A stretch of DNA of 38,550 nt from Candidatus Micrarchaeia archaeon (GTDB lineage: Archaea > Micrarchaeota > Micrarchaeia > CAILAH01): contig JBMFNT010000001.1 of NCBI GenBank assembly GCA_049970015.1, positions 1 to 38,550 on the forward strand. The letters are read 5' to 3'. Of the stretch, positions 6,231-31,830 are shown one piece after another (position 1 is the stretch's first letter; every line of letters starts with the position of its first letter). The notes under the pieces are model-generated. The model was not told the DNA's origin. It worked only from the letters and a program-made list of their open reading frames with translations, and did not search any database. The translations under genes were made by a program, and so were the position numbers.

Positions 6231-7058
6231 ATGCCTCCAAGCAAGAAAGAACCATTTATAGACTACTTGGCATCGTTTTTCCCTGACTTGCACAAGAAAT
6301 TGCGCATGGCTAAGATTAAGAAAGCTGAGAATGATTATATACGTGATGCCCTAATATACTCAGTCCTTGTTTTTATGATATTGCTTATTATGCTCGTGCT
6401 CTTGTTTATCACAGCAGGTATAAACCTTGCTTGGCTTTTGCTTATTGCACCCATAACCTTGCTTGCGTCTTTTCTATTTTTCATGAAGCGTGTTGATGTT
6501 ATAATAGCTTCACGTGAAAGGAAAATCGATAAAGAGCTGCTGTTTGCTGGGAGACAATTAGTGATTGAAATAAAAGCAGGTATTCCACTCTATGATGCCA
6601 TTACTCACTTAACAGCAGATTATGGTGAGGCAAGCAAGGTTTTTAGAGAAGTAATAGACAAGACAAACTTGGGGGTACCGCTCGATGTTGCAATGGAGGA
6701 TGTTGCAGATGAAACTCCTTCAAAGCCTTTCAAGCGTATTGTGCTACAAATGGTAAACTCAATACGGTCTGGGTCTGATATAGGAATTGCACTTGAGACT
6801 ATACTCGATCAGTTGTCACAGGAACAACTTATAGAGATAAAAGTATACAGCCAAAAGCTTAACCCATTGGGCATGTTCTATATGCTGTTCGGTATAATAG
6901 TGCCTTCATTGGGTGTTACGCTTGCAGTCACACTGCTAACATTTACAGGGGTTGCGCTAAGCCCTATGTTCTTATGGGGCATACTTGTGGTAATAATTAT
7001 CGTGCAGTACATATTCCTTACGATGATAGAAACATCACGGCCTAAGTTTGAGGTATAG
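6231..7058 (+). CDS. Type II secretion system F / TadC-FlaJ family pilus platform protein
   Basis: N- and C-terminal TM helices around a T2SSF domain (IKAGIPLYDAI, YGEASKVF, GVPLDVAM, SGSDIG). Confidence 0.88.
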   Translation: MPPSKKEPFIDYLASFFPDLHKKLRMAKIKKAENDYIRDALIYSVLVFMILLIMLVLLFITAGINLAWLLLIAPITLLASFLFFMKRVDVIIASRERKIDKELLFAGRQLVIEIKAGIPLYDAITHLTADYGEASKVFREVIDKTNLGVPLDVAMEDVADETPSKPFKRIVLQMVNSIRSGSDIGIALETILDQLSQEQLIEIKVYSQKLNPLGMFYMLFGIIVPSLGVTLAVTLLTFTGVALSPMFLWGILVVIIIVQYIFLTMIETSRPKFEV

Positions 7059-7070
7059 GAGGTTGTTTGA

Positions 7071-8117
7071 ATGGCATTCTCATATGAAAATGTAGGAAGA
7101 GTGTTTCCAAGAGGTATAGTACGCCTGGTAGGTAAGAATACATATATGGCTGGCATGACCCATGAGCCTGAGTGGATACTGGGTGCATTGCTGTCCTTTT
7201 CACTACTTCTTGGTGCATTGCTGTTTGTAGTACTTGTCATATCTACCGATCTGGTTTCTACATTTTCTTCACTGTTCATGGGGTTGGGTACTGTGGTTGC
7301 ACTTGCGATAGGCACCATTCTTATGTTTATATCAGTTGAGTTGTTCTCTTTTGCTCTCATGTCGATAGTGCTCTACGGTTATCTTTTGGTACAGATGGAT
7401 GCACGAAAGCGTGAGGTTGAGGCAGTACTCCCTGATTTCCTGCAGTTATCGGCAGCAAACGCGCGTGCCGGTCTTCCCATAGAACAGGCACTTTGGAGGG
7501 CTGCAACACCAGAGTTTGGTGCCTTGTCTAGGGAAGTTCAAACAGCTATGAAAAGAACATTCAGTGGTGAAGCGATATCAGATTCACTGACATATCTTTC
7601 AGATAGGTTCAATTCAAAGTACCTGCAAAGGACTGTAAGCGTTATCAAATTTGGCATAGAATCCGGTGGTGAGATTGGCGAAATACTCGAGAGGACGGCA
7701 TCTGACCTGAGAAAGATGCAGATTATGTATAAGGAGGCAAGCTCATCAATGCTTATGTATGTCATATTCATAACATTTGCTGCACTTATAGGTGCACCAT
7801 TCCTGTTTGCCGTTTCGTATAAGCTGATCGCAACATTGAGTGCCGTATGGATGGCAGTACCACCAACACAACAGTTTACATCGTTTGGCCTTATCTCTTT
7901 TTCACCACCAGAGATAAGTGCAGATGACTTTAGGCTGTTCTCAATACTATCGATCTCCATAACATCCATATTTGCATCTTTTATCCTATCAATAATAATG
8001 AGTGGGACAACAAGAGAAGGCATCAAGATGTTGCCTTTCTTTCTGATCGCAGGCCTTGGCCTATTGTTTATTTTCATTGGCATTGTAAACTCTTTGCTCT
8101 CGAATCTGTTTATATAA
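7071..8117 (+). CDS. Type II secretion system F / TadC-FlaJ family pilus platform protein (second paralog)
   Basis: LPDFLQLSAANARAGLPIEQAL, FGALSREV, ESGGEIGEILE; multiple TMs; GGAGGT SD upstream. Confidence 0.9.
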   Translation: MAFSYENVGRVFPRGIVRLVGKNTYMAGMTHEPEWILGALLSFSLLLGALLFVVLVISTDLVSTFSSLFMGLGTVVALAIGTILMFISVELFSFALMSIVLYGYLLVQMDARKREVEAVLPDFLQLSAANARAGLPIEQALWRAATPEFGALSREVQTAMKRTFSGEAISDSLTYLSDRFNSKYLQRTVSVIKFGIESGGEIGEILERTASDLRKMQIMYKEASSSMLMYVIFITFAALIGAPFLFAVSYKLIATLSAVWMAVPPTQQFTSFGLISFSPPEISADDFRLFSILSISITSIFASFILSIIMSGTTREGIKMLPFFLIAGLGLLFIFIGIVNSLLSNLFI

Positions 8118-8150: not shown

Positions 8151-8242
8151 GCCCCCGTAGCTCAGCGGTAGAGCACTCGCCTCGTATGTGTATGTAACAC
8201 ATTGAAAGCGAGGGGTCGTGGGTTCAAATCCCACCGGGGGCT
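8151..8242 (+). tRNA. tRNA-Thr(CGT) with 20-nt intron at 37/38 (intron 8187-8206); CCA not encoded
   Basis: Acceptor GCCCCCG/CGGGGGC, D arm GCTC/GAGC, anticodon stem CTCGC/GCGAG with CGT at 8183-8185, T arm GTGGG-TTCAAAT-CCCAC; TTTATATA box ~35 nt upstream. Confidence 0.95.
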
Positions 8243-16802: not shown

Positions 16803-17321
16803 ATGAAAGATGTTGAAAGGATAAATGAGGAAACAATAAGCAAGGGAGGGGTGCTGTTTCTTATGTACTTTGATTCGCATGCGACTTCCGAGGAAGCTGT
16901 AAAAAACAGGCTAACGGAGCTTTTTGCAAAAATCACTACTGAAAAAGGTGTGGTCTATGGAGTGGGAACAATTGAACCCGCAATAAAAGATGTAGTTAAT
17001 GGAAAGGAAACCTTCTCAACATCTGGTGAGATTAAGGTACTAACAAAAGATGTCAGAAGTGCTTTCAGGCTCGCAAGTGCATATGGGCCAGTGTATATAG
17101 AAGTGCTTTCGCCAGAAGAGGTGCATGTGAGCTTTTCGGAACTTCAGGAAACACTGAACGATGTGTCACAAGTGAGCTATAGCTTATCAAATTATATTGT
17201 AAAAAATACGTTAAAGGGCGATTCACTCAATCTATTCCTGAAGAATGTCAAGTATAGGGAACAGTTGGGTGAGAAACTAAGGAAGAGTGGTGGTAAGTAT
17301 GATAAAACAGAGGGGCATTGA
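16803..17321 (+). CDS. Hypothetical protein
   Basis: 172-aa ORF with typical composition; first gene of the apparent operon with the KaiC-like gene, trpS and acyP. Confidence 0.8.
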   Translation: MKDVERINEETISKGGVLFLMYFDSHATSEEAVKNRLTELFAKITTEKGVVYGVGTIEPAIKDVVNGKETFSTSGEIKVLTKDVRSAFRLASAYGPVYIEVLSPEEVHVSFSELQETLNDVSQVSYSLSNYIVKNTLKGDSLNLFLKNVKYREQLGEKLRKSGGKYDKTEGH

Positions 17322-18003
17322 TAAGATACCAAGCGGGATACCCGGGTTTGATGAAATTTCTGATGGTGGGTTTGTTAGGAATAGTATAATATCTCTTTCA
17401 GGAGGAGTGGGCGCTGGCAAGACCATATTTGGCATGCAGTTTTTGTACAATGGAATCACTGAAAATAACGAAAATGGGATGTATGTGTGTTTTGAGGAAA
17501 CAAAAAAATCAATGTATAGAAACATGCTCAAACTAGGATGGAACCTCAAGACACTTGAGGATTCACAAAAACTTACTTATCTCGCATATCCTCCACACGA
17601 AGTTGACCTGTTTTTTGATCAGGAAGATACACTCATAAACCTTATCGACAAGTTTGCTGTGAGCAGGGTGGTGTTTGACACTGTAACTATTCTGGGAATG
17701 CATTTTGACACAAAACGTGCAAGAAAGGAAGGTATGCTTAAGTTTATTGATAAGTTAAGGAAATGGGGGTGCACATCACTCCTCATAAGCGAGACACATG
17801 ACTATCCAAACATAGCTAAAAGTATCGAATCACTTGCAGATACTGTAGTACATCTGTATAATATCAGAGACAAGGGAAACAGAAAAAGGGGTATTGAAAT
17901 AATAGAAATGAGGGGATCAAAACATTCTACAAGTATACATCCGTTTACGATTGGTTCTGAAGGTATTGAAATTGATGCTAACTCTGTGCTTGAGGTGGAA
18001 TAG
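17287..18003 (+). CDS. KaiC/RAD55-like RecA-superfamily ATPase (single domain)
   Basis: IPSGIPGFDEISDGG, Walker A GGVGAGKT, FEE, RVVFDT, RGIEIIEMRGSKH; start may be 17299. Confidence 0.92.
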   Translation: MVVSMIKQRGIDKIPSGIPGFDEISDGGFVRNSIISLSGGVGAGKTIFGMQFLYNGITENNENGMYVCFEETKKSMYRNMLKLGWNLKTLEDSQKLTYLAYPPHEVDLFFDQEDTLINLIDKFAVSRVVFDTVTILGMHFDTKRARKEGMLKFIDKLRKWGCTSLLISETHDYPNIAKSIESLADTVVHLYNIRDKGNRKRGIEIIEMRGSKHSTSIHPFTIGSEGIEIDANSVLEVE

Positions 18004-19379: not shown

Positions 19380-20537
19380 CTATGCCTTTTTCTTTGGTAA
19401 AAAAGCAAGTTTTTTCTTCTCCTCCTCTTTCTTTACTGTGTCCACTACACTTTTATACCCTTCGATGTCCAATACCCTGTACTTATTAAATTTCTTTTCG
19501 AAGGTATCCTCAGGAACAAGTGAAAATACTACCCCTCCTTTACTACTAGAGGATTCAAAAATCATATGATGTTTCTTGCCATCTTTTTCGATAATACCAT
19601 AGTCTATAACTACATGGCCATGCTCAGTGTCAAGCACAGTCTTGCTGGCAGATATTATGAGAGGATAACTACTTTCTGAAAAATCATAATCTTTAACTAA
19701 ATGGGTACTACCGTTATATATGTAAGTTGTAGATGGATATCTATTGTATTCTTTCAGCACTCCTTCAAACAGGTGTGCTACCAGCCCTGAACAGTCAAAG
19801 CCATGCTTCGGTGAAGTACCTCCATACCTGTAAGGCTTACCAAGAAGTTCTGAAATCTGTTTCTTTGTATTTTCATCTAGTGGAAGAGTTGAAATATCTT
19901 CCTTGCTCAAATACTCAATCTGCTCTCTTGCACTTGCAGGCTTCTTCTCAACCTTAGCAACCAATCGTGGAATTGGCGATACTTTTTTCACTTGCACTGG
20001 CTGTTCCTCAAGCACTCCAGAAACAAACGCAAAGAATGTCCTCTTGCCAAATATCCCATCTATCTCAATCTGGGTACTCGCATAGTCTCCAAATTTACTT
20101 TCTACTAGATAATTCTGCAATTCCGCAACGGTTTTGACACCCATATATTCCAAAAATACTTTTCTGTTTCCATACAATACTTTATTAGCTATAGTATCAT
20201 CTATATATGGATATGCAATCTGACGAATATCTCGTAAGTATCCTGCCACCTTTTTGTTCCCATTATATGCCTCTCTCTCCATCCACGCGAACAATGCAAC
20301 AAGGGTATTCTTACCAAAGATGCCATCTTCATTCAACTTGAGAGAAGTGTTTCTCAGCTCTTTGTTAAGATATTTCTGAAGATCAACCACTGAATTTATA
20401 TCCATCTTAGACTTAACAACGTCCATAACTTTTTTCTCAATCTTGCGTGCAAGCTCGTTCGTGAAGGATTTACGAATAAGCTCTCTCTCCAGAGCATATG
20501 CCATATCCTTATCGATCTTTTGTGTTTGTGCCTCCAT
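19380..20537 (-). CDS. NlpC/P60 family cysteine hydrolase with two peptidoglycan-binding (PG_binding_1)-like repeats
   Basis: LLGKPYRYGGTSPKHGFDCSGLV, GHVVI, IFESSSSKGGV; two V..LQ.YL...DGIFGK.T..A repeats; start moved to ATG 20537 (385 aa) with a TTTATAAA box at 20589-20596. Confidence 0.85.
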   Translation of the reverse strand: MEAQTQKIDKDMAYALERELIRKSFTNELARKIEKKVMDVVKSKMDINSVVDLQKYLNKELRNTSLKLNEDGIFGKNTLVALFAWMEREAYNGNKKVAGYLRDIRQIAYPYIDDTIANKVLYGNRKVFLEYMGVKTVAELQNYLVESKFGDYASTQIEIDGIFGKRTFFAFVSGVLEEQPVQVKKVSPIPRLVAKVEKKPASAREQIEYLSKEDISTLPLDENTKKQISELLGKPYRYGGTSPKHGFDCSGLVAHLFEGVLKEYNRYPSTTYIYNGSTHLVKDYDFSESSYPLIISASKTVLDTEHGHVVIDYGIIEKDGKKHHMIFESSSSKGGVVFSLVPEDTFEKKFNKYRVLDIEGYKSVVDTVKKEEEKKKLAFLPKKKA

Positions 20538-20626
20538 AGATAATAATTTGCTAATAATTATTTTATATCTGTATGAGTAGTAAGATGATTTATAAATCTT
20601 TGTATTTAATTGCATAAAAAGTAATA

Positions 20627-21054
20627 TGCAAAGGTAAAAACAAGTACCTAAGGAAAAACCATCCCAAGTTTCTGTTTCTGTGGACGATGTTAGGATATTA
20701 TTTGAATTCATATATCTTAAGAGAATCCGTACAGGCAAATACCAAGTCTTCTTGGATAACAATAAAACACTGCCGGAGTTATTAGATTCAGTAGGAGGAG
20801 AAATCAAAACGTGGGCGGGAGTGTGTCAAGTCTTTTGAGTGCTCTTCTAAAAGAAGCGGTAAAAGCAATTGTTTTTAGAAAAACTAAATGCACAACTGCT
20901 GAAAAGCGCAAAAAAAGGAGATCTGAAGGGTGTGCAGGATGCAATTAATGAAGGTGCAAATGTGAATGTAAAAAATGATTATGGGCAAACCGCACTAATC
21001 TATGCAGTACATAATGGCCATACATTGTTTTTAGAGAAGGTGCTGTGAGTCAAC
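20627..21054 (+). pseudogene. Degraded ankyrin-repeat gene
   Basis: 20884-21048 reads LNAQLLKSAKKGDLKGVQDAINEGANVNVKNDYGQTALIYAVHNGHT; upstream ATG 20627 is followed by an in-frame TAA and frameshifts. Confidence 0.75.
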
Positions 21055-22395: not shown

Positions 22396-23532
22396 ATGCG
22401 CATTGCATACTACACAGAAACATATCTGCCAAATGTCGATGGTGTAGTGAAAAGCATAATCTCATCACAACAGGTGCTGCGTTCTTTTGGTGATGAAGTG
22501 TTTGTTTTTACCTGCGGCACCAAGGAACTGATCCAATCTAACAAGGATCCGTATGTTTATTATTATGACTCAATTCCATTTACACCTTACCCGAGCTACA
22601 GGTTTGCCCTTAACCCATACCCATCAGCAAGTGTGATAGACTCAAAGAAAATAGAATTAATTCATTCTCATGGTATGGGTACTATGGGTATAGCTGCATA
22701 CAGGATAGCAAGCAAGCGCAAGCTGCCATTCATAGGCTCATTCCATACATTGATACAGTATGCAACCCATTACTTATCACGCAAACATGTGATACAGGAT
22801 ATTGCAAAGCGCATCGCTTGGAAATACCTGCGCTGGTACTACAACAAGTGCAATATTACGATCGTGCCCTCCAATACCATACGGGACCTTTTGGAGTCCA
22901 ACGGGTTTAGAAATATTCGTGTTATTCCTAATGGAGTAGATATAGAATTCTTTTCAAATGCGCAGAGGAATAGGGGGATGTTTAATCTAAAAGAGGATGA
23001 TGCAGTATTTCTTTTTGTTGGGCGCCTTGTCCACGAGAAAAACCTTGATGTGTTGATACGTGCATCAAAGAAAATCATAAAGGAAATTCCAGATGCACGT
23101 TTTGTTATAGCTGGAACGGGTCCAGCTGAGCAGTATTACAAGGAACTTGTTGCAAAAGAAAAGGTTTCTGGAGCATTTGATTTTTTAGGTTTTGTTGAAG
23201 AACATAAGGTAGCACACCTTTACAAGAGTGCAGATGTTTTTGTATTCCCTTCTAAGTTTGAAACACAGGGGTTAAGTGGTATTGAGGCAATGTCTGGAGG
23301 CCTTCCCGTGTGCGGTGCAGATTATCTTGCATTGAAAGAGATTGTTATTGAAGGCTATAATGGTATGTTGTTCAACCCAGATTCTCCTGAAGAGTGTGCG
23401 GAGAAAGCAATCCTGACTTATAGCAAACGGCAGGCATTGGGTGTCAATGCAATTAAAACAGCAATGAAATTCTCGCATCTGGAGACGACAAAGCTGCTGA
23501 AGAAAGTATATGAAGAAGTAGCGGGTACATGA
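22396..23532 (+). CDS. Glycosyltransferase family 4 (GT-B)
   Basis: MRIAYYTETYLPNVDGV, FVGRLVHEKNLD, FVFPSKFETQGLSGIEAM. Confidence 0.95.
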   Translation: MRIAYYTETYLPNVDGVVKSIISSQQVLRSFGDEVFVFTCGTKELIQSNKDPYVYYYDSIPFTPYPSYRFALNPYPSASVIDSKKIELIHSHGMGTMGIAAYRIASKRKLPFIGSFHTLIQYATHYLSRKHVIQDIAKRIAWKYLRWYYNKCNITIVPSNTIRDLLESNGFRNIRVIPNGVDIEFFSNAQRNRGMFNLKEDDAVFLFVGRLVHEKNLDVLIRASKKIIKEIPDARFVIAGTGPAEQYYKELVAKEKVSGAFDFLGFVEEHKVAHLYKSADVFVFPSKFETQGLSGIEAMSGGLPVCGADYLALKEIVIEGYNGMLFNPDSPEECAEKAILTYSKRQALGVNAIKTAMKFSHLETTKLLKKVYEEVAGT

Positions 23533-26151
23533 TTACCTTATGAATTCAGAAAATTCGTTTATTGTTAGGGGTATTACTGTCTCATTTAACAGGGCAATCT
23601 TTATTGATGCACCCCTCTTCCCATACTTGCTTATGCTTTCTATAAACTCCCTTTTTGAGTCATCGTCTGCAAACAGCAAAACTGTCCTCTCCTCACCTGA
23701 AATGGCCCTTTCTATTCTTTCAAGTAAGTTCTCACCAGTGCATATGATTATTTTCAGGTTTTCATTTCTCATTTTTATGTACGTATCACAATCCTCACGC
23801 TCCCCAAGCTTTGTGAATGGTATTGCCGCAGGTATGAGGATATCTCGCATTTTCCTGAACATTGCGAGATACTTATAGTTATATCTGTCTGTCTCCCATT
23901 TTGAAAGTGCATACAAGTCCAAGTACATCTTTATGTCTCCCAGGTGCATCAACTTATCTAGGATTATTTGTGTATTATAATCTCCTATTAGTATAGGCCT
24001 GCCCATATAACTGATTTTCCTGAATCCATTTTTTATCTCTTTGAGCGAGAGCGGCATACGTTCCCACCCATACTCGGCATTGATCCTCTCAAATATATCA
24101 AATATCATATCCTTCTTTACATATATCTTCTTTTTTGCCCTGGCCTCAAACTCCGGGATATCCAGTGAATACTTGACTTTTTCACGTGCCTTGAATGCAA
24201 TGCCGATTGCAACAATGCCCATAGTAAGTACAATTACAAACCAGAACCACCACTGCTCATAATACATTCTGGATATACTTGAAACACTCTCATAAACAAG
24301 ACCTTTCTGAACCTCAAACCTGAAAGTATGCTTCCTGCCCTCCTCTAAAGGTGTATCTACCTTAAAATAAGCAAAGGTTTTTTCACCTGACTGCGTGGTT
24401 GATATTTTCTGCCTAATCTTGTCATCTATAACAACATACGTATCCTTCAAACTACTTGTGATATCCTCACCTTCAAGTTCAGGTACTTCAAGACTAAATA
24501 CAAACATCTGTTCTTTCCAATCGATCCTTTCCGGAATAAGGTTTATCTGTGGGACTATCAGGACTGATTTTGCAAACGTATATGGAGGTGTTGATGGCGC
24601 ATCAAGCCTTATTATATATACCCCATGCTCAATCTTTGGGTCATATACTGATTTTAGTGTATAATCTATGGGTAATATATACTGTGCACCAAAGAAGATC
24701 TCATCAGCAATCTCTCCACTACTGTTTATCAAACGCAGCCTAATCTCAGTGGCCTGCTTGAACCTGTCAATGCTCTCATTGAAGTATGCCTCAACATCAA
24801 AAGTTCTCCCGCTTATTTTTTCTGAGAGTGCATAAGGCGAATTGCTTATACTGCCTTTCTGTGTTTTTGATATCTTGAGATACTTACTCTTAACATCTAC
24901 AATTTCATTATTCTCATTATACGCCCGCGTATAGATTCTTGCATACCCTTCCTGTATACCTGCTTTTCCTTTTGTTATCAAGGTCTCGTACACATCATTA
25001 CTGTCTTCAAGCTTGTAATAGCTTTCCGGTGTTGCTTCAATATATCTATCATACTCTTTAAGCCATGCTGCATTCTTTATGAGCATAGCAATGTCTGTTG
25101 CGGCCTCCTTGCCATTATTCCATCCACTGTCAAGCGTATTAGGTATTATTACGAGATATCCCTGCCCTCCCCAATTCACAACAGGAATTCCGTTATTTGC
25201 AAGCTTTACATCGGCAGTGTACTGTACATTCTTTTGATACGCAGGTACCACACCATACCTAACGTCTTTCAATAGCATGCCATCAAGACTGGATCTTGTA
25301 CTTGTAATATCTATCCCAAGCGTAGTTGAAACTGCTTCCACAGAGTAGTCAGTGCCTGGGAAAATCCTTCCCCTTCTCTCATCCATCAGCCCTTGGTCAA
25401 ACCCAAACCCTATATAGATTATAGTGGCGCCTTTCCTTGTAAGCTCAACAGCATTTTTACCACTCCCATGTGGTGATGCAAGTGAAGCTGGCATAAATCC
25501 AGTTGGAACAATTATCAGGGGATGCGACCCTTCAGGCAGGCTTTCCAGCTCTTCCAGGTATATTTCGTTCACTGACACACCAAACTTTGAGAATTCTCTC
25601 TGCAACTCATCCTTGAACTCGCTGTAACGGCTGCCCTGCTCACGCCGTGAGTTCAGCACGTATATCCCATCATACAACGGGCCGTCAGATGCTTCCATAA
25701 ACACTCCTATTTCCTTTACATTGTTCCCGCGAGCATGCAAAATCACATATGGGGTATATACCCCGTGACCATTTATGTTGGCCAACCCGTAATCTATAAT
25801 ATCCAATTGCAGTGAAGGAACTTCCCGTGCTACAGGTGCAACAACACCAATGCCTGCACCTTGCATCATGAACAGTATGTACGCAAAAATGATACCTATT
25901 AATATGAGCACAGCACCCAAATACACAAACAGCTTTCTCATCACTCCTTTGAGAATTGGTTTATTCTTCTGCATTGTCTCTGCGCTTTTCACATCCCCCT
26001 TACCTGTCTTTGTCTTAATAAATGCCAGTGCAATCTCACGTATTTTATCCATCCCGACAGACTTTTCCTTGAGTGGTTTAAACTTCACAGTATATTCTTT
26101 TTTCTTCTTTAGCGTAAACTTGTATGACTTACCCTCTGCCATAAAATACAC
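23533..26151 (-). CDS. Large membrane protein (two TM helices, ~530-aa external region, cytoplasmic C-terminal domain); last gene of the VirB4-like operon
   Basis: TMs LFVYLGAVLILIGIIFAYILFMM and WWFWFVIVLTMGIVAIGIAF; start may be 26142. Confidence 0.85.
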   Translation of the reverse strand: MYFMAEGKSYKFTLKKKKEYTVKFKPLKEKSVGMDKIREIALAFIKTKTGKGDVKSAETMQKNKPILKGVMRKLFVYLGAVLILIGIIFAYILFMMQGAGIGVVAPVAREVPSLQLDIIDYGLANINGHGVYTPYVILHARGNNVKEIGVFMEASDGPLYDGIYVLNSRREQGSRYSEFKDELQREFSKFGVSVNEIYLEELESLPEGSHPLIIVPTGFMPASLASPHGSGKNAVELTRKGATIIYIGFGFDQGLMDERRGRIFPGTDYSVEAVSTTLGIDITSTRSSLDGMLLKDVRYGVVPAYQKNVQYTADVKLANNGIPVVNWGGQGYLVIIPNTLDSGWNNGKEAATDIAMLIKNAAWLKEYDRYIEATPESYYKLEDSNDVYETLITKGKAGIQEGYARIYTRAYNENNEIVDVKSKYLKISKTQKGSISNSPYALSEKISGRTFDVEAYFNESIDRFKQATEIRLRLINSSGEIADEIFFGAQYILPIDYTLKSVYDPKIEHGVYIIRLDAPSTPPYTFAKSVLIVPQINLIPERIDWKEQMFVFSLEVPELEGEDITSSLKDTYVVIDDKIRQKISTTQSGEKTFAYFKVDTPLEEGRKHTFRFEVQKGLVYESVSSISRMYYEQWWFWFVIVLTMGIVAIGIAFKAREKVKYSLDIPEFEARAKKKIYVKKDMIFDIFERINAEYGWERMPLSLKEIKNGFRKISYMGRPILIGDYNTQIILDKLMHLGDIKMYLDLYALSKWETDRYNYKYLAMFRKMRDILIPAAIPFTKLGEREDCDTYIKMRNENLKIIICTGENLLERIERAISGEERTVLLFADDDSKREFIESISKYGKRGASIKIALLNETVIPLTINEFSEFIR

Positions 26152-26154
26152 CGG

Positions 26155-26910
26155 CTATCTCCTTATTTCGAGGTATCCTTCATACACCATCTTGTTAAGC
26201 AACTGCTCAACCCTGCTCTCACGCACTTTGTACAACTTGCAAAAATCATCTATGTTAATTTCGTTACCATGCTCTCTTATCCATTCCTGTATTTTCAGCA
26301 TTAGCGTGTCATCTGAATATTTCTCAAGCTCATCAACCCTCAGTTTGAGCTGGTCCCTCTCATTTCTCATCTCTATTAACTCTCTGCTCAGCTTGTTATT
26401 ACTCTCCTCAAGCTTTTCAATCTGCCTCTTCAGCTCGTTAACTCTTGACAGCAAGGTATCATACTTGACATACAATTTCTCGTAGTTAGATGTTGCAAAC
26501 TCACCTATCTCAGCAAGGAATACATCAAGTACCTGCATAAAACTTGTTATGTCTAATGTGTATGCATCGCCCATTACTGCAAGCACATTTGACACGTACC
26601 TTAACAGCTCCAGTCTTCTTTTCCTTAGGCTTATCTCTGGAGTGACTGTGTACATAACCTCAATGCTATCTGTATTTAGATATATTATGATAAAAAGGTA
26701 GGGTATGTTATCTATATCCCTGCTCTCAACTTTTATGAGAGCCACCCTATCTTTAAGCTCGACAATCTCTATCCCAGGAATACTGCTCGCCTTTTTTGCA
26801 ATATCCTTTAAGCTAATATTCAGCTTTGCAGCTATCTTGAACGATGCACCCATCGGCTCAGAAATAATGTCATTATGTTTTTCGCTTGCAGGTGTGCTTT
26901 TTTCAGCCAT
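26155..26910 (-). CDS. Coiled-coil protein with C-terminal winged-helix-like domain
   Basis: Heptads LLSRVNELKRQIEKLEESNNKLSRELIEMRNERDQLKLRVDELE; INIDDFCKLYKVRESRVEQLLNKMVYEGYL. Confidence 0.85.
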   Translation of the reverse strand: MAEKSTPASEKHNDIISEPMGASFKIAAKLNISLKDIAKKASSIPGIEIVELKDRVALIKVESRDIDNIPYLFIIIYLNTDSIEVMYTVTPEISLRKRRLELLRYVSNVLAVMGDAYTLDITSFMQVLDVFLAEIGEFATSNYEKLYVKYDTLLSRVNELKRQIEKLEESNNKLSRELIEMRNERDQLKLRVDELEKYSDDTLMLKIQEWIREHGNEINIDDFCKLYKVRESRVEQLLNKMVYEGYLEIRR

Positions 26911-27300
26911 CTACTTAACCTCCCTAAGCCTTGGCACATACTTTATGTGTGCAAGTATAAGCATGAAGATAAGCAACAATATGCCTGCCAGAAAGCTGCT
27001 TAATGACAGGTTCAGAAGAATCAGGATGATCATTATAACTATACCTGCTCCTCCATACATCAACAGTGACCTCTCAAACTCGCCGCGCCTTTTCTTGTAG
27101 GAGTCCATACATTTATCGCATACAACAAGGGTGTTTCCTTTTTCAGCATTGAGCCTTTTTTTTACCCATCTTATAGCGGATATTACATAATCCTCCTCAA
27201 CCCTCTGGCCATGAGTCCTCTGGGTGCACATAATGCACACTTCTTTTCCTACACCATCTCCTTTTTCAACCTTATGCTTTTTAGGTTTAGATTTATCCAC
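26911..27300 (-). CDS. Small membrane protein with CxxC...CxxC zinc-binding motif and two C-terminal TMs
   Basis: CIMC, CDKC; hydrophobic hairpin; abuts or overlaps both neighbours. Confidence 0.85.
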   Translation of the reverse strand: MDKSKPKKHKVEKGDGVGKEVCIMCTQRTHGQRVEEDYVISAIRWVKKRLNAEKGNTLVVCDKCMDSYKKRRGEFERSLLMYGGAGIVIMIILILLNLSLSSFLAGILLLIFMLILAHIKYVPRLREVK

Positions 27301-28861
27301 CTAACTCAACCTCCGTGCTTTCACCACGCACCCCCAACTTCTTATAGTCGGCTTCAGTGAATATATTTATGATAACACTATCCTCTACACCAAGGTCTTT
27401 TAGGAACCCAGTAATGTCACCCCTTTCAACACCATACCTCTCAAGCATTATGACAAAGTCAACAACATCCATATGCCTATTCAATTTGTCAAATGTTGAA
27501 GTAATCTCCTCCACCTTATCATCAGCAAGGCCGAACAACCTCAGCTTTCTTCGTAATTCATCACGTTCGAACGAAAGTGTCTTACCCATAATCTCCTCCC
27601 CTCCAACAAGTTTTGGCTCAACATCAAGGAAGTACTCAACCACCGGCTCCTCCCCTTCAATCCTCGAAAGTATGAAAGTTTCAGGGTATGGAGTGCTTGT
27701 TTGCAGCGCCATGTTTACGGCGGCCTGCCCAACACCAAGTTTTGCAATCTGTTTTCTCATATATTCGCTAAAGTTAAGTGTATTCTGCAAGTAATCCAGA
27801 AACTTTTCAAACTTGACACGTAATATGAATGTTGTTCCAACATTTGAGAATATTGCTTCGCTTATATCAGTAGGGTTTTGTGATGCAACCAATAACGCAA
27901 ACTGGTATTTCCTACCTTCCCTCACAATCATAACAGCATCGCTATTTTCATCCTTTGCAATCTTCCAGGCCTCATCAAGCACTATTATGAGTCGTATCCC
28001 CTTCTCCTTTGCCCATCCCGCGGCGCGCATTTTCTCCTTTATGAACTGCAGTATTGAAAGCGCGGCAAGCGCCCTCATCGTCTCATCAGGTAATCCGGAC
28101 AGGTCGAGGTCAACAAGACCTGAGGAGATTAGTTCATCCAGCTTGATTGTGCTTTGTTCTGCAAAGAAATCCTCACCTTCCCTAGTAAACTTTTTTATTC
28201 TGTAGATTGCATTCTCCAGCTCAACCGGGAACTCATAAGTCCCCGAGCTAAGCTTGTCCTCAAGTATCCTCACAACATCCTTGAGTGTTGGCGGCACCAG
28301 TAGATTACCCAGAGCATCTTTCTGGTTTTTTTCTGATAACCTGAATCCCTTATCAACATATGCTTTTTCGATTGCCTCTTCACTCAGCCTTTTTTGTTCC
28401 GGGTAGTTCCCAATGTCAGTCAGTATTTCAAGGCTCCTTATAACTTGCTTGATCCTATCAAGTGGTCTCATGCCTGCAAGGTCAAGCAGGTTCAAATAAG
28501 ATCCTTTCCCAAGCGAAAGTATTTTTCCACCAGTCTGTTTTACCCATTCCCTATACTCTCCTGCCCAGTCTATTATGAGTGCATTGCTCTTCCACACGAA
28601 AGATGCACGCGTTAGAAAGGTTTTGATGAAATACGATTTACCTGCACCTGTTATACCAACAACTGCAATATGTGGATTTGTTACAGTCTCATAGCTCCAG
28701 TGGAATGGCTCATTGAACACTGCCGTTCTTCCAATATATATTGAGTTTTTTGGGTTTCCAACAATAAGCTCGGCTGGAGGCTCTGGAGGCCTTGTTATAA
28801 TTCCTCTGCTTGCGACATCAGAGCTGTACAGCTTCTTGTTTTTTACCTTTATTACACCCAT
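27293..28861 (-). CDS. VirB4/HerA-FtsK superfamily ATPase (VirB4 C-terminal-domain/CedB-like)
   Basis: NPHIAVVGITGAGKS (Walker A), IIDWAGEY, IIVLDEAW (Walker B), REGRKY (Arg finger), ASQNPTD; ATG 28861 has a GGTGA SD. Confidence 0.9.
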   Translation of the reverse strand: MGVIKVKNKKLYSSDVASRGIITRPPEPPAELIVGNPKNSIYIGRTAVFNEPFHWSYETVTNPHIAVVGITGAGKSYFIKTFLTRASFVWKSNALIIDWAGEYREWVKQTGGKILSLGKGSYLNLLDLAGMRPLDRIKQVIRSLEILTDIGNYPEQKRLSEEAIEKAYVDKGFRLSEKNQKDALGNLLVPPTLKDVVRILEDKLSSGTYEFPVELENAIYRIKKFTREGEDFFAEQSTIKLDELISSGLVDLDLSGLPDETMRALAALSILQFIKEKMRAAGWAKEKGIRLIIVLDEAWKIAKDENSDAVMIVREGRKYQFALLVASQNPTDISEAIFSNVGTTFILRVKFEKFLDYLQNTLNFSEYMRKQIAKLGVGQAAVNMALQTSTPYPETFILSRIEGEEPVVEYFLDVEPKLVGGEEIMGKTLSFERDELRRKLRLFGLADDKVEEITSTFDKLNRHMDVVDFVIMLERYGVERGDITGFLKDLGVEDSVIINIFTEADYKKLGVRGESTEVELGG

Positions 28862-28865
28862 GCAT

Positions 28866-29669
28866 TCACCCGGTAAGTTCAATCAGTTCATCATAGCTGG
28901 TTGGGATTACAAACTCCCAATCCAGACACATCTCAGCATCTTCACCTACAAGGTCTATAACCTCTACATTAAGGTTGTTTGAGAGGACAGCTTTTATCTC
29001 GCGTGCCTGGGACAATGCCTTGTCGCGCGCCTCCTGAGGTGTAATTCCTTTGGCAAAAGTGGCTGCATACATGACCGCTCCAATAGGTTTTACACCACCT
29101 GCAAGCCTTTTGAGGAGATTTTCATAAACATCCTTCTCTTTCTGCCACCTATCTATTTTTATGACATCTGGCTCAGCTTTCTCCATCTCCCTTTTAATCC
29201 TTAGACTATATTCATACACCTTTGCTTGCACACTTTCCCTGTATGCGCTCACATCCTTTGTTGACATGAGCAAGCTTATTTTGGCAGGCACATTCATCGA
29301 TGCTATAGCATTCTCAAAATCCTGCAGGTATACATCCATCCTTTCTTCCCCCCTCCCTGATACCTCCTCACGCTCAGGTATGTTCATAAGCAGGTATTTT
29401 GCAGCAATGTATTTGTTCCCAATTTTTTTGATTATTACATCTTGCCCTGGTGGAAAAACATACTCCCCTTTCTTATAAGTAATATTGAAGATTCTTGTAA
29501 TAAGCGGTGTTATGAGGTATCCTATGTAAATGAATGCCCCCACAATACCTGCCATGATGACTGCTAGCACAAACAATGGTATGCCCGCATGAAATGATAT
29601 GTATAATGCAACAAGTACCACGAACGCAACTCCTACAATCATATACAGCTTTGGGATACGTTTTTGCAT
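28866..29669 (-). CDS. Membrane-anchored protein, paralog of 29676-30440, resembling a VirB4 N-terminal domain
   Basis: Two N-terminal TMs, coiled coil, KPIGAVMYAATFAKG...AREIKAVL...CLDWE. Confidence 0.8.
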   Translation of the reverse strand: MQKRIPKLYMIVGVAFVVLVALYISFHAGIPLFVLAVIMAGIVGAFIYIGYLITPLITRIFNITYKKGEYVFPPGQDVIIKKIGNKYIAAKYLLMNIPEREEVSGRGEERMDVYLQDFENAIASMNVPAKISLLMSTKDVSAYRESVQAKVYEYSLRIKREMEKAEPDVIKIDRWQKEKDVYENLLKRLAGGVKPIGAVMYAATFAKGITPQEARDKALSQAREIKAVLSNNLNVEVIDLVGEDAEMCLDWEFVIPTSYDELIELTG

Positions 29670-29675
29670 ATGTGT

Positions 29676-30440
29676 TCACCATTCAGGAGACATTGCCTCC
29701 CATTCATAGCACATGCGCATTCTGTTATGCGCAAGTTCATCTACCCTCAATGACATCCCGCTTGTGAATGTTGCCTTGATTTCCTTTGCCTTAACACGGG
29801 CTGCACTAAGCGCAGAATCTTTCGTTGCACCTTTTGCAGATACTGAAACTATATATGCCACTGCCATAGGTTTGCCTGTTCCTTTATACAAAGACTCCAA
29901 CCTTCTTTCCCACATCAGCTTTTCCCTTTCAAGGACTTCTATTTCTCTCTCATCAACCTTCTTTTTTTGTCTCTCAGTTGCAATTGCATTCTCAACCTCT
30001 GCTTTCTTCTCCTCTATGTTTTCAATATACTTACGCATATCTCTCTCATATATTATTGCACACAGCTTTATTGGATCTCTTATACTGGAGATAGTACGTT
30101 CAAAGTATCGTGCATACTCCTTTATCTCATCATCACTCTTGTTAGTCATTGTTTCATACACATCAAGATTCAGAAATACTGTGGCTATGTAATCCTCGCC
30201 TTCCTTCTTTATCAGCGCATCCTCGCTTGCTGGCAACTCGTACTTGTAATCAACATAAATATCTTTCTTGAACTGGGTCAGGAATGGCACATATATATTT
30301 CCCCATGCATAGAACAGGTATGATACTCCTGCAAGCACTATTGCGATAAGAGCAATTGGAGCAAACTGGCTTGCAAACAAGAGAAGTACAAAGCTTGCTC
30401 CAAGCGTACCATATGCGAGCATTTCATTAAAATCCATCAT
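29676..30440 (-). CDS. Membrane-anchored protein, paralog of 28866-29669, resembling a VirB4 N-terminal domain
   Basis: Two N-terminal TMs, coiled coil, KPMAVAYIVSVSAKG...AKEIKATF...CYEWE. Confidence 0.8.
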   Translation of the reverse strand: MMDFNEMLAYGTLGASFVLLLFASQFAPIALIAIVLAGVSYLFYAWGNIYVPFLTQFKKDIYVDYKYELPASEDALIKKEGEDYIATVFLNLDVYETMTNKSDDEIKEYARYFERTISSIRDPIKLCAIIYERDMRKYIENIEEKKAEVENAIATERQKKKVDEREIEVLEREKLMWERRLESLYKGTGKPMAVAYIVSVSAKGATKDSALSAARVKAKEIKATFTSGMSLRVDELAHNRMRMCYEWEAMSPEW

Positions 30441-30775
30441 ATCATCTCTTCACAAGTATATGGATATGTTTCAAGGTCAAAATTGAATGCATCTGCAACT
30501 ATATGGACAATTGCAGGAGCGCTCGCAGCAATGATTAAGCCAAGTATTGCACCTATCACCATAGTAGTTGCCCATACAGTTGCTCTTGAGCGCATCTCAG
30601 CACCGAGTACCTGGCCTGCAGCATAAACGAGCCCACCAAAAACAATGAGTATGAATGCGATTATTGGCATCATGCCTCTCGCTTGATAGCATAGGTTGTT
30701 TATCGTTTCACCTACACCCGCGCTTACTATAGCACTCAATGCAAGCACAAGGACAAGTATATTAACAAGTTTCAT
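30437..30775 (-). CDS. TrbC/VirB2-like pilin (112 aa)
   Basis: Signal peptide (MKLVNILVLVLALSAIVSA), then two hydrophobic helices separated by a short charged loop (GAEMRSRA); start moved to ATG 30775 with GGTGG SD and TTTTTAAA box. Confidence 0.72.
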   Translation of the reverse strand: MKLVNILVLVLALSAIVSAGVGETINNLCYQARGMMPIIAFILIVFGGLVYAAGQVLGAEMRSRATVWATTMVIGAILGLIIAASAPAIVHIVADAFNFDLETYPYTCEEMI

Positions 30776-30890
30776 GTTTCCACCGGTTCTAATATCTACA
30801 ATAACATTTAAAAAATCCACACCAGTATTGTTTGGCCTTATTTTGGTAATGCACTTAATCATATTAAAACTTGCCATACAAAAGTTAGCT

Positions 30891-31268
30891 ATGCCTTCTA
30901 TACGGTATGAAAAGGCCCCAGATGTTGAGCGAATGCTGTATTCAGTAATGGAAAAATACAGGGATGAGTTCCCACACATAAATGAGTTTCGCGTGCTTTG
31001 TGTTCGCTCGTACAATAGTTCAGCACATGCATATGCACGGATATGGAGCATGCCACAGGCGTGGAAAACAGCACTTGACATAGATACATTTTATGTACTA
31101 GAAGTACTGCATGAAAATTTTGACCATCTTCCTGAACATGAAAAGGAAAAGACGCTTCTTCACGAACTGTTACATATACCAAGAACATTCAGCGGTGCAC
31201 TGCTGCCTCATGTGTACGGAAAAGGCCAGAAGCATATAGAAGAAAAAGTAAGAAGAATTTTTAAGTGA
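30891..31268 (+). CDS. Predicted zinc metallopeptidase (small HExxH family)
   Basis: AYARIW, YVLEVLHENFD, TLLHELLHIP; start moved to ATG 30891. Confidence 0.85.
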   Translation: MPSIRYEKAPDVERMLYSVMEKYRDEFPHINEFRVLCVRSYNSSAHAYARIWSMPQAWKTALDIDTFYVLEVLHENFDHLPEHEKEKTLLHELLHIPRTFSGALLPHVYGKGQKHIEEKVRRIFK

Positions 31269-31348: not shown

Positions 31349-31672
31349 TCAATGACCACCTGCTTTTTTGAGCAATTCCACAACATCTTTATGACCATTC
31401 TCGGCTGCATACCTTAGTGCGGTCAGGCCCAAAATATCCTTTGCATTCACATCAGCACCTTTCTCTAAAAGCAATTTTACAATTTCTGTACGGCCATCAC
31501 GGGCTGCATACATTAGCGCCTTATTTGTTGCACAATTAGTTGTAAGCATTATAGATGCAGAGAGTAGAGTAATTCCAGCAATTCTTTTAATCTCTCTAAG
31601 TATTTTTGACTTTTTAGCATCATCCTTTTTCAAGGATTCCACATTAGCCAGTGGTTTATTTTGGATATCCAT
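31349..31672 (-). CDS. Short ankyrin-repeat protein with N-terminal membrane/lipoprotein-like anchor
   Basis: ALMYAARDGRTEIVKLLLEKGADVNAKDILGLTALRYAAENGHKDVVELL; IAGITLLSASIMLTTNC. Confidence 0.88.
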   Translation of the reverse strand: MDIQNKPLANVESLKKDDAKKSKILREIKRIAGITLLSASIMLTTNCATNKALMYAARDGRTEIVKLLLEKGADVNAKDILGLTALRYAAENGHKDVVELLKKAGGH

Positions 31673-31830
31673 ATACAACCACCTTTTCAGACAAATGATA
31701 TTATGTATTGCTTTCTATATAAATGTTTTCTCTACTTATTCATACTGGTATAGTAAACCTTTCTCCGGAGCATCAAACACAAACATCTTAAACAGGACTG
31801 GCCGGTCATAAAGTGGAAATATCTAGAAAC

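Follow-up and report, generated by a model that had tools for sequence, protein, structure and literature searches.

What kind of machine is built from a pilin, a motor ATPase and a set of membrane and cytoplasmic partners that are encoded side by side on the chromosome of a host-dependent archaeon, and what might it move? The question is raised by seven genes, g1 to g7, which lie on the minus strand at 23533-30775 of a 38,550-nucleotide stretch of DNA from a Candidatus Micrarchaeia archaeon (contig JBMFNT010000001.1 of assembly GCA_049970015.1, positions 1 to 38,550), here called the window. A first-pass annotation had proposed a non-mobile derivative of type IV secretion systems (T4SS) and of the archaeal Ced system in a host-dependent archaeon. 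The family matches of the pilin and the ATPase, the conserved gene order and the lack of Pfam relaxase and VirD4 families bear this out. We consider it probable that the operon encodes the central part of an envelope machine that is fixed in the chromosome of Micrarchaeota, is inherited vertically and descended from a type IV secretion or conjugation apparatus. In its motor, g2 and g3 supply the front part and g4 the back part, thus giving one conjugation-type motor that is split across three genes.

The split motor and the pilin

The back part of the motor is g4. Its protein passes the cut-offs of three Pfam families, AAA_10 (52.4 bits, cut-off 27.5), DUF87 (50.8 bits) and P-loop_TraG (43.4 bits, cut-off 25.8), and its best NCBIfam model is CedB (E 2.8e-24, 85.7 bits), followed by CedD, a VirB4-like family of Firmicutes, mycoplasma VirB4 and TraC. 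About 15 kb around the ATPase gene were compared in 20 relatives from 11 families. The ATPases, with 54-88% identity across these relatives, match the CedB, CedD and VirB4 families in 20/20 cases with CedB giving the best E-value, and the motifs G-x-x-G-x-GKS and D-E, which we take to be the P-loop and acidic motifs, are invariant in all 20 homologues. The match to CedB covers positions 251-541 of its 590, and the CedB and VirB4 models cover g4 residues 45-386. Because these models are matched only in their C-terminal halves, g4 lacks the VirB4 N-terminal domain; homology shows it to be, as judged from sequence families, a VirB4/CedB-like ATPase domain alone, the back half of a conjugation-type motor. 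The earlier label of a VirB4-type ATPase is therefore right for the P-loop domain and has to be narrowed to the C-terminal half of a split VirB4.

Several results weigh against this assignment, and they bear on a different reading of g4 as a HerA-type helicase for DNA repair or anti-virus defence, with the membrane genes as unrelated neighbours. First, g4 stays below every curated cut-off for CedB, VirB4 and HerA, with 33-86 bits against 325-970: the cut-off for CedB is 700, and the scores are 67 against 325 for conju_CD1110, 57 against 590 for VirB4_plasma, 53 against 567 for TraC, 33 against 643 for VirB4_CagE and 45-53 against 800-970 for the HerA models. Second, the best matches of g4 and of its family profile among PDB sequences are HerA proteins (55 bits for g4, defence-system HerA included), with the VirB4 C-terminal domain 4ag5 at 39.5 bits, and TrwK, the VirB4 of R388, is matched by neither the protein nor the profile. 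DUF87, which exceeds its cut-off in g4, is moreover the HerA central domain. However, the HerA models, which cover about residues 164-389 in NCBIfam, match only the last part of the domain, at about 260-390, whereas the CedB and VirB4 models cover residues 45-386. A distinct HerA-like gene lies on another contig (C15) and reaches 166 bits to HerA, whereas g4 stays at 53 bits or less; the g4 profile aligns with canonical micrarchaeal VirB4 in one stretch of 55-70 bits, whereas its alignment with the C15 HerA falls into two pieces that score 13 and 25 bits. No NurA, Sir2, DUF4297 or other nuclease or effector family was found among the six other operon proteins, and the upstream neighbours, which carry a VirB3/VirB4 N-terminal-domain fold and a VirB2 pilin, belong to a neighbourhood that is fixed in 20/20 loci. 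Considering the separate C15 HerA, the better fit of the g4 profile to canonical VirB4 and the lack of a nuclease partner, we regard a HerA-type repair or defence role as very unlikely. In a quick midpoint-rooted tree of main copies, second copies, five canonical micrarchaeal VirB4 proteins and one HerA, built without CedB, TedB and VirD4 references, the branch leading to the canonical VirB4 proteins (4.0) is shorter than the one leading to HerA (7.9). We would place g4 in the border zone between HerA, CedB and VirB4, like CedB itself, which, as one section of a published account has it, was formerly classed with HerA (PMC11868833).

The front part of the motor is encoded twice. Described in the first-pass annotation as paralogous membrane proteins, g2 and g3 are indeed 27% identical, and in each of them a pair of membrane helices at the N-terminus precedes an alpha/beta domain of some 200 residues. 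The AlphaFold2 model of g3 (predicted local distance difference test (pLDDT) 84, predicted template modelling score (pTM) 0.69) retrieves R388 TrwK/VirB4 entries at all of ranks 1-10 in Foldseek (E 1.8e-3 to 1.5e-2). An exhaustive structural scan with VIA-align over 48,161 chains also puts TrwK/VirB4 first (7o42_A, Z 8.8, 159 residues), and in a second look g3 superposes on 8rtd_g with Z 11.6 and a root-mean-square deviation of 2.9 over 146 residues, model residues 68-256 lying on TrwK 221-376. Four more TrwK entries follow at Z 8.3-9.1, all other rows being helical hairpins of 49-66 residues with Z of 8.3 or less; sequence identity in the g3/TrwK superposition is 8-9%. In addition, some Micrarchaeia have a canonical gene of 884-1002 residues with the Pfam domains PrgI (the VirB3 of monoderms), TraC_F_IV and P-loop_TraG. 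The g2/g3 profile aligns with the N-terminal 420 residues of these PrgI(VirB3)-VirB4 fusions (hhalign 91.2%, E 9.9e-7), collinearly across 229 columns and with the membrane hairpin included. Homology thus shows that in both g2 and g3 a membrane hairpin like that of VirB3 is joined to a portion of the VirB4 N-terminal domain, two features of T4SS membership that are present here, though on separate proteins. Of the five partners that had been called uncharacterised, these two no longer deserve the word, and g5, g6 and g7, which match no family, still do.

Some results count against this interpretation of g2 and g3. Foldseek gives the g3 model no match at E <= 0.001, and a form in which g2/g3 and the ATPase are fused in one chain did not appear: a search with the g2/g3 profile among 1.84 billion representatives returned 279 proteins at E <= 0.001; among the best 150 of these, almost all full-length proteins have 237-283 residues, the others are shorter fragments, and none is of VirB4 length. 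A search for longer relatives gave no such fusion either, which is weak evidence. The longer relatives of g4 proved to be nine intein-bearing forms and nine DptH-like proteins. Among PDB sequences the g2/g3 profile meets coiled-coil noise only. Of 10 distant clusters of g2/g3 relatives queried, one had a named organism, Micrarchaeia, and none gave sight of the family beyond the phylum Micrarchaeota. A rearranged VirB4 has precedent: as described in sections of two reports, CedB and CedD each have an N-terminal domain that superposes on a part of that of VirB4, the part being a different one for each (PMC11868833, PMC9905601).

The first gene, g1, had been taken for a VirB2-like pilin, and the family evidence agrees. 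Its family alignment displays a signal peptide and two hydrophobic helices with a conserved Y-x-x-G-x-x-x-GAE loop between them. Among 13 sequences (the window protein and 12 homologues from six relatives' loci), 11 match Pfam T4SS_pilin (best 7.2e-7) and 10 match TrbC/VirB2 (best 3e-6), and the family profile has TrwL/VirB2 of R388 as its top match among PDB sequences (E 0.049). A point on the other side is that the window protein itself matches T4SS_pilin with E 0.0028 and 18.1 bits, under the 26.6-bit cut-off. Homology of the family shows g1 to be a VirB2/TrbC-type pilin at the level of its predicted protein. A conserved pair of Cys residues lies with one member near each end of the mature protein, the C-terminal one being invariant. 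Some conjugative pilins undergo head-to-tail cyclisation, and one may speculate that a disulfide between the two Cys residues mimics it. A second VirB2-type pilin paralog, away from the operon on contig C8, is found by the pilin profile at E 1.6e-34 and also weakly matches the polytopic-family profile discussed below (8.4e-5).

Conservation, partner proteins and a candidate channel

The gene order, which had been suggested as a test of the proposal, is conserved in relatives: g2/g3, ATPase, g5, g6 and g7 follow one another in 20/20 loci from the 11 families, a recurrence beyond what chance would give. The g2/g3 gene is present as a single copy in 10/20 loci and as two copies in the other 10, and one to three pilin genes stand directly upstream of the motor in 6/20. 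Counting as present any profile match at E <= 1e-50, we found the ATPase in 341/401 genomes sampled from the phylum (two of them unpublished and entering this tally only), in 168/188 high-quality ones and, by genus, in 127/155. It is not universal, which counts against the proposal: among families with four or more genomes sampled, it was mostly not found in f2 (0/7), f11 (0/8), f14 (0/4), f17 (0/4) and f7 (3/21). A scan of one genome per species gave 409 loci with relatives of the ATPase; of a set of 80 among these, 72 are labelled as taxa of Micrarchaeota lineage and eight as 'archaeon', 'uncultured archaeon' or 'Candidatus ainarchaeum'.

These counts bear on the idea that the operon is what remains of a decayed integrated conjugative element or plasmid. 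Genomes of other Micrarchaeia do have canonical VirB3-VirB4 fusion genes, possibly mobile, with pilin genes next to them. However, the order from g2/g3 to g7 is the same in 11 families, and the mean column identity of the ATPase is 69%. All seven open reading frames (ORFs) are intact, the G+C content of the operon (0.39-0.44) is the same as in the remaining window, and the operon is surrounded by housekeeping genes, namely those for aminoacyl-tRNA synthetases, ribosomal proteins, RNase P subunits, Nop, Cdc48 and a GT4 glycosyltransferase. A family scan of 29 flanking ORFs detected no integrase or relaxase family, as expected from the earlier claim of a non-mobile locus with ordinary chromosomal flanks. 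The annotation had also seen no relaxase and no coupling protein in the window, and the rest of the genome (0.78 Mb in 72 contigs, 90% complete) agrees: Pfam T4SS-DNA_transf (VirD4) and Pfam Relaxase, the one relaxase family searched, were not found at E <= 0.01. To our knowledge, no archaeal relaxase has been described. We find a decayed element hardly credible.

Other motor clusters occur in the relatives. Families f3 and f15 usually have a second, diverged motor copy of 47-54% identity (L124-L127, in G015, G040, G030 and G023). In 3/4 loci examined, this copy is reduced to g2/3, ATPase and g6 without an adjacent pilin, the G030 locus having no detected g2/3 ORF; g6 is kept in 3/4. The G023 second-copy cluster is an unbroken run of pilin, polytopic protein, g2/3, ATPase, a small C-terminal copy and g5, the Zn-ribbon protein. 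The canonical conjugation-type clusters with the 884-1002-residue fusion are those of L118-L122 (G033, G013, G031, G023 and G010). A pilin-family ORF neighbours the fusion gene in 2/5 of these loci (G033, G023), toxin-antitoxin-like small genes lie near the cluster in 2/5, and the clusters are possibly mobile.

The ATPase gene has further variations of its own. The last ~100 residues of g4 form an extra C-terminal domain that is duplicated as a stand-alone ORF of ~100 residues directly downstream of the ATPase in 8/20 relatives' loci; neither the domain nor its stand-alone copies match a Pfam family. Inteins (Pfam intein, LAGLIDADG) interrupt the ATPase in nine protein clusters, P0152-P0160, of 1026-1654 residues, and in G013 (L028) the insertion adjoins the P-loop region. 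Inteins are typical of conserved, vertically inherited genes.

The three remaining partners are retained in all loci and yet lie outside known families. No Pfam, NCBIfam or PHROG family was found for g5, g6 or g7, with the CedB and CedD models included in the NCBIfam library; in PHROGs, g4 matched only unspecific ATPase families, and the other operon proteins had no meaningful match. As aligned with its homologues (19 sequences), g5 starts with a cytoplasmic domain that is rich in Cys and Zn-ribbon-like, and it has a membrane hairpin of two helices; its family matches in Pfam and NCBIfam are weak and sub-threshold. The zinc finger that had been reported for it is present in the window protein as a CxxC...CxxC pattern; only the first Cys is invariant among the 19 homologues, and zinc binding is therefore not a feature of the family. 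The g5 gene directly follows the ATPase gene, or the small C-terminal copy of it, in 20/20 loci. The cytoplasmic g6 protein, likewise kept in 20/20, begins with an N-terminal domain, continues as a coiled coil at about 140-200 and ends in a winged-helix-like domain at about 205-250. Its Pfam matches are coiled-coil and sub-threshold ones only, and its family profile meets the CdvB winged helix 2xvc over residues 208-248 at E 0.016, with other matches being coiled-coil noise.

The largest partner, g7, was modelled with a pLDDT of 77.6 as a protein with an extracellular region between two membrane helices (domains in the table). In Foldseek, the model resembles tandem arrays of immunoglobulin-like (Ig) and fibronectin type III folds. 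VIA-align compares residues 161-409 to folds of the GH42 domain B, ThuA and IFT52-N type (Z 10.8-7.7) and residues 677-753 to winged helices (Z 9.0-7.4). A VRR_NUC nuclease was considered for residues 758-872 and rejected, the Z of 7.5 being within search noise and only one acidic residue (D789) being invariant. The g7 family profile found nothing under E 0.4 among PDB sequences, and the ESM Atlas gave no usable match.

The window has no polytopic gene of the VirB6/CedA kind, as the first-pass annotation stated. For the genome the statement fails, because contigs C7 and C18 each carry an array of six full-length polytopic paralogs, 12 in all. They are about 20-28% identical to each other, and the duplications are therefore old. 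In 8/20 relatives' loci, one or two such paralogs of 334-416 residues with 4-8 hydrophobic segments are encoded directly upstream of g2/g3. Furthermore, five ATPase-positive genomes all have the polytopic family (14-18 matches each) and the pilin, and five ATPase-negative genomes (89-97% complete) have neither (0/5 for both); as the genomes are kin and not independent, the comparison shows consistency and carries no statistical weight. The case for a channel is weakened by the family itself, which has no Pfam match, and Pfam TrbL/VirB6 was not found in the genome. A likeness between its N-terminal hairpin and the pilin (hhalign 57%, E 1e-4) is only suggestive, and the language-model neighbour of one paralog, a cluster with 23% CedA1-family members (score 0.89), is a lead only. 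The C7 array adjoins two FtsZ-like genes.

Relation to known machines and possible functions

The nearest comparison systems are Ced of Sulfolobales (CedA, CedA1, CedA2, CedB, CedD, CedE) and Ted of Thermoproteales (TedA, TedB, TedC). Like them, the Micrarchaeota operon is a chromosomal, relaxase-less archaeal derivative of a conjugation machine with a VirB2-like pilin, a VirB4-like ATPase and a rearranged VirB4 N-terminal domain. Unlike in Ced, the ATPase falls far short of the CedB cut-off and is no CedB equivalog by that test. The operon differs from both systems in that two further proteins, g2 and g3, carry the N-terminal domain joined to a hairpin like VirB3, in that the candidate for the channel is a family of 12 paralogs, in that g5-g7 match no family, and in that its lineage is DPANN rather than Thermoproteota. 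Ced and Ted import DNA; for the Micrarchaeota operon such a function is hypothetical.

Bacterial systems show other similarities. With the core of the monoderm MPF-FATA type (PrgI/VirB3, PrgJ/VirB4, VirB6-like, VirB8-like, VirD4), the operon shares the module of VirB3 hairpin, VirB4 N-terminal domain and P-loop domain, which is collinear with the PrgI-TraC_F_IV-P-loop_TraG fusions of other Micrarchaeia. In contrast to that type, the module is split, its front half is duplicated, the genome has no Pfam VirD4, relaxase or TrbL, and the locus is not on a mobile element. In the solved inner-membrane complex of R388 TrwK/VirB4 with TrwM/VirB3, TrwK is one chain of about 820 residues, and the g4 profile misses it. 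The T4SS of Patescibacteria, the Candidate Phyla Radiation (CPR), is also a lineage-wide chromosomal derivative in ultra-small host-dependent cells, with a VirB2-like pilin and no relaxase, as sections of two papers describe (PMC12102498, PMC12857230). However, it has an intact VirB4 together with VirB1/3/6/8 and VirD4-like parts, whereas here the motor is split, the partners are others and the domain of life is another. That ultra-small symbionts of two radiations as distant as CPR bacteria and Micrarchaeota have each retained a derivative of the T4SS without a relaxase hints at a common solution to an epibiotic lifestyle.

A full-text literature search combining DPANN or Micrarchaeota with T4SS, VirB4, CedB, pilin or VirB2 found no description of the system. 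The main texts of the papers on Mia14 (PMC5498576) and on Ca. Micrarchaeum harzensis (PMC8975820) mention neither 'VirB' nor 'HerA', and the archaeal section of a 2025 T4SS review, as far as its consulted parts go, covers conjugative plasmids only (PMC12857230). Giant proteins of nanohaloarchaea with a VirB4/TraG-like domain, noted in part of another report (PMC10266531), are a different thing. The split-motor operon is thus a variant of known conjugation-derived machines for which we found no published description. With it, the domesticated conjugation machines, so far Ced, Ted and the T4SS of Patescibacteria, reach a third archaeal lineage. It also takes to an extreme the VirB4 rearrangement that had first been noticed in CedB and CedD, with duplicated separate front halves, a stand-alone ATPase and 12 ancient channel-candidate paralogs. 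For the question of how DPANN archaea draw material from their hosts, the operon offers a concrete phylum-wide gene set; a cultivated relative, Ca. Micrarchaeum harzensis, exists with its Thermoplasmatales host (PMC8975820).

We propose the following working model. The pair g2 and g3 would attach hexamers of g4 to the membrane and arrange them there, and ATP hydrolysis by g4 would drive the extraction and polymerisation of pilin, the passage of a substrate, or both. The substrate would pass through a channel built with the polytopic paralogs encoded elsewhere in the genome. The proteins g5, g6 and g7 may be lineage-specific scaffold and substrate-handling parts, with g7 presenting a surface-exposed Ig-like stalk outside and a winged helix in the cytoplasm.

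What the machine would transport can be suggested with less assurance. The job that we tentatively favour is to take up nucleic acid from a host or another partner cell, as Ced does, since CedB, the curated family closest to g4, is a DNA importer and the winged-helix-like domains of g6 and g7 both face the cytoplasm. With somewhat more doubt, one may think of the split motor, the pilin and the 12 polytopic paralogs as a conduit between Micrarchaeota and host that draws in host nucleic acids or other macromolecules which the symbiont cannot make itself. As an analogy for nucleic-acid uptake, parts of a recent preprint describe that ultra-small bacteria acquire host nucleic acid and that tubular structures, possibly T4SS pili, are present at the contact site (10.64898/2026.06.21.733656). 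If a conduit is what the operon encodes, the machine would be needed for growth and would be an independently arisen archaeal counterpart of the essential T4SS of Patescibacteria.

The same ancestry could also have led to an outward or contact organelle, which delivers proteins or other molecules into the host or builds and maintains a cell-cell junction; such a role has been proposed for the relaxase-less T4SS on which the epibiotic growth of Patescibacteria depends. The T4SS of Patescibacteria is essential, has a VirB2-like pilin and is possibly a conduit, according to part of a review (PMC12857230), and most of its clusters are without a relaxase, according to part of another study (PMC12102498), as this genome is without a Pfam relaxase or VirD4 family. 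In addition, g7 exposes a large Ig-like array at the surface, as adhesins do. However, the nearest curated ATPase family is that of a DNA importer, no candidate effectors are encoded in the operon, and the cytoplasmic winged-helix-like domains of g6 and g7 suit the handling of nucleic acid at least equally. These points are not decisive. We think an outward or contact role rather unlikely, though it is the foremost alternative, and nucleic-acid uptake stays our preferred, tentative suggestion.

A simpler task would be pilus assembly only, in which the ATPase extracts VirB2-type pilins for a host-attachment filament and nothing is translocated. The tandem pilin genes ahead of the motor in some relatives would fit such a task, and conjugative pili act mainly as attachment organelles, as stated in part of a review (PMC12857230). 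However, type IV pilus parts are already encoded in the window by two T2SSF genes, the 12 polytopic paralogs and three conserved cytoplasmic and membrane partners exceed what a filament needs, and second-copy clusters retain g2/3, ATPase and g6 without an adjacent pilin. We therefore hold a filament-only role to be improbable and continue to favour, with the caution expressed above, a machine that takes up nucleic acid.

Operon layout and neighbouring genes

The first-pass annotation had seven co-oriented, tightly packed genes behind a single TATA-like box, and both the ORF coordinates and the strand were verified. The junctions are a 4-nt overlap (g1/g2), a 6-nt gap (g2/g3), an 8-nt overlap (g4/g5), abutting ends (g5/g6) and a 3-nt gap (g6/g7). 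At g3/g4, the overlap of 17 nt as called becomes a 4-nt gap if g4 starts at Met8 (28861), which is invariant in 20/20 homologues and is likely to be the true start. The A/T-rich box is indeed present ahead of g1 (TTTTTTAAAT) and is a putative promoter element of the operon.

Coordinates of the operon, its parts and other features, with mean column identity in the family alignments
Feature	Position	Strand	Size or remark	Mean column identity
TATA-like A/T box, TTTTTTAAAT	30806-30815	-	31-40 nt upstream of g1 ATG; read from sequence	
GGTGG	30780-30784	-	5-9 nt upstream of g1 ATG; read from sequence	
g1, VirB2/TrbC-type pilin precursor	30437-30775	-	112 aa	42%
g2, VirB3-like hairpin and VirB4 N-terminal-domain-like part	29676-30440	-	254 aa	43% (g2/g3)
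g3, VirB3-like hairpin and VirB4 N-terminal-domain-like part	28866-29669	-	267 aa	43% (g2/g3)
g4, motor ATPase, C-terminal half of VirB4/CedB	27293-28882	-	529 aa	69%
g4, extra C-terminal domain	27293-27640	-		
g5, small membrane protein with Cys-rich head	26911-27300	-	129 aa	31%
g6, coiled-coil/winged-helix-like protein	26155-26910	-	251 aa	50%
g7, two-pass membrane protein	23533-26151	-	872 aa	33%
g7, cytoplasmic tail	residues 1-63		AlphaFold2	
g7, first membrane helix	residues 64-97		AlphaFold2	
g7, extracellular beta-sandwich	residues 113-166		AlphaFold2	
g7, glutamine-amidotransferase-like alpha/beta domain	residues 161-361		extracellular	
g7, three Ig-like beta-sandwiches	residues 366-623		extracellular	
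g7, second membrane helix	residues 634-652		AlphaFold2	
g7, winged helix	residues 677-753		cytoplasmic	
g7, alpha/beta domain	residues 758-872		cytoplasmic	
Second VirB2-type pilin paralog	C8:13503-13877 (L128:5504-5878)	-		
Six polytopic paralogs	C7:5069-13173 (L117)	-		
Six polytopic paralogs	C18:276-6974 (L116)	+		
GT4 glycosyltransferase gene	22396-23532	+	convergent to g7 end	
Metallopeptidase-like gene (Pfam PhageMetallopep)	30891-31268	+	divergent from g1; start inferred	
Ankyrin-repeat protein	31349-31678	-	109 aa	
NlpC/P60 peptidase-domain protein	19380-20807	-	475 aa	
Two adjacent T2SSF-family genes (type IV pilus platform)	6231-8117	+		
KaiC-like ATPase gene	17287-18003	+		
tRNA-Thr (CGU) call	8151-8242	+	92 nt	

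The operon is flanked by genes of other kinds. A homologue of the GT4 glycosyltransferase gene stands beside the cluster in 11/20 relatives' loci, which may reflect mere synteny or a link to surface glycosylation. On the other side, a spacer of 115 bp, counted to the inferred start of the metallopeptidase-like gene, separates this gene from g1, and the two share a common promoter region; the adjoining gene encodes the ankyrin-repeat protein, which has a hydrophobic N-terminus. At 2.7 kb past the operon end lies the gene of the NlpC/P60 protein, a peptidase domain that is unusual for an archaeon whose known hosts have no wall. The T2SSF pair and the KaiC-like gene show that components of another, type IV filament system are encoded in the window as well. 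Finally, the tRNA-Thr (CGU) call exceeds the length of a plain tRNA and may contain an intron.

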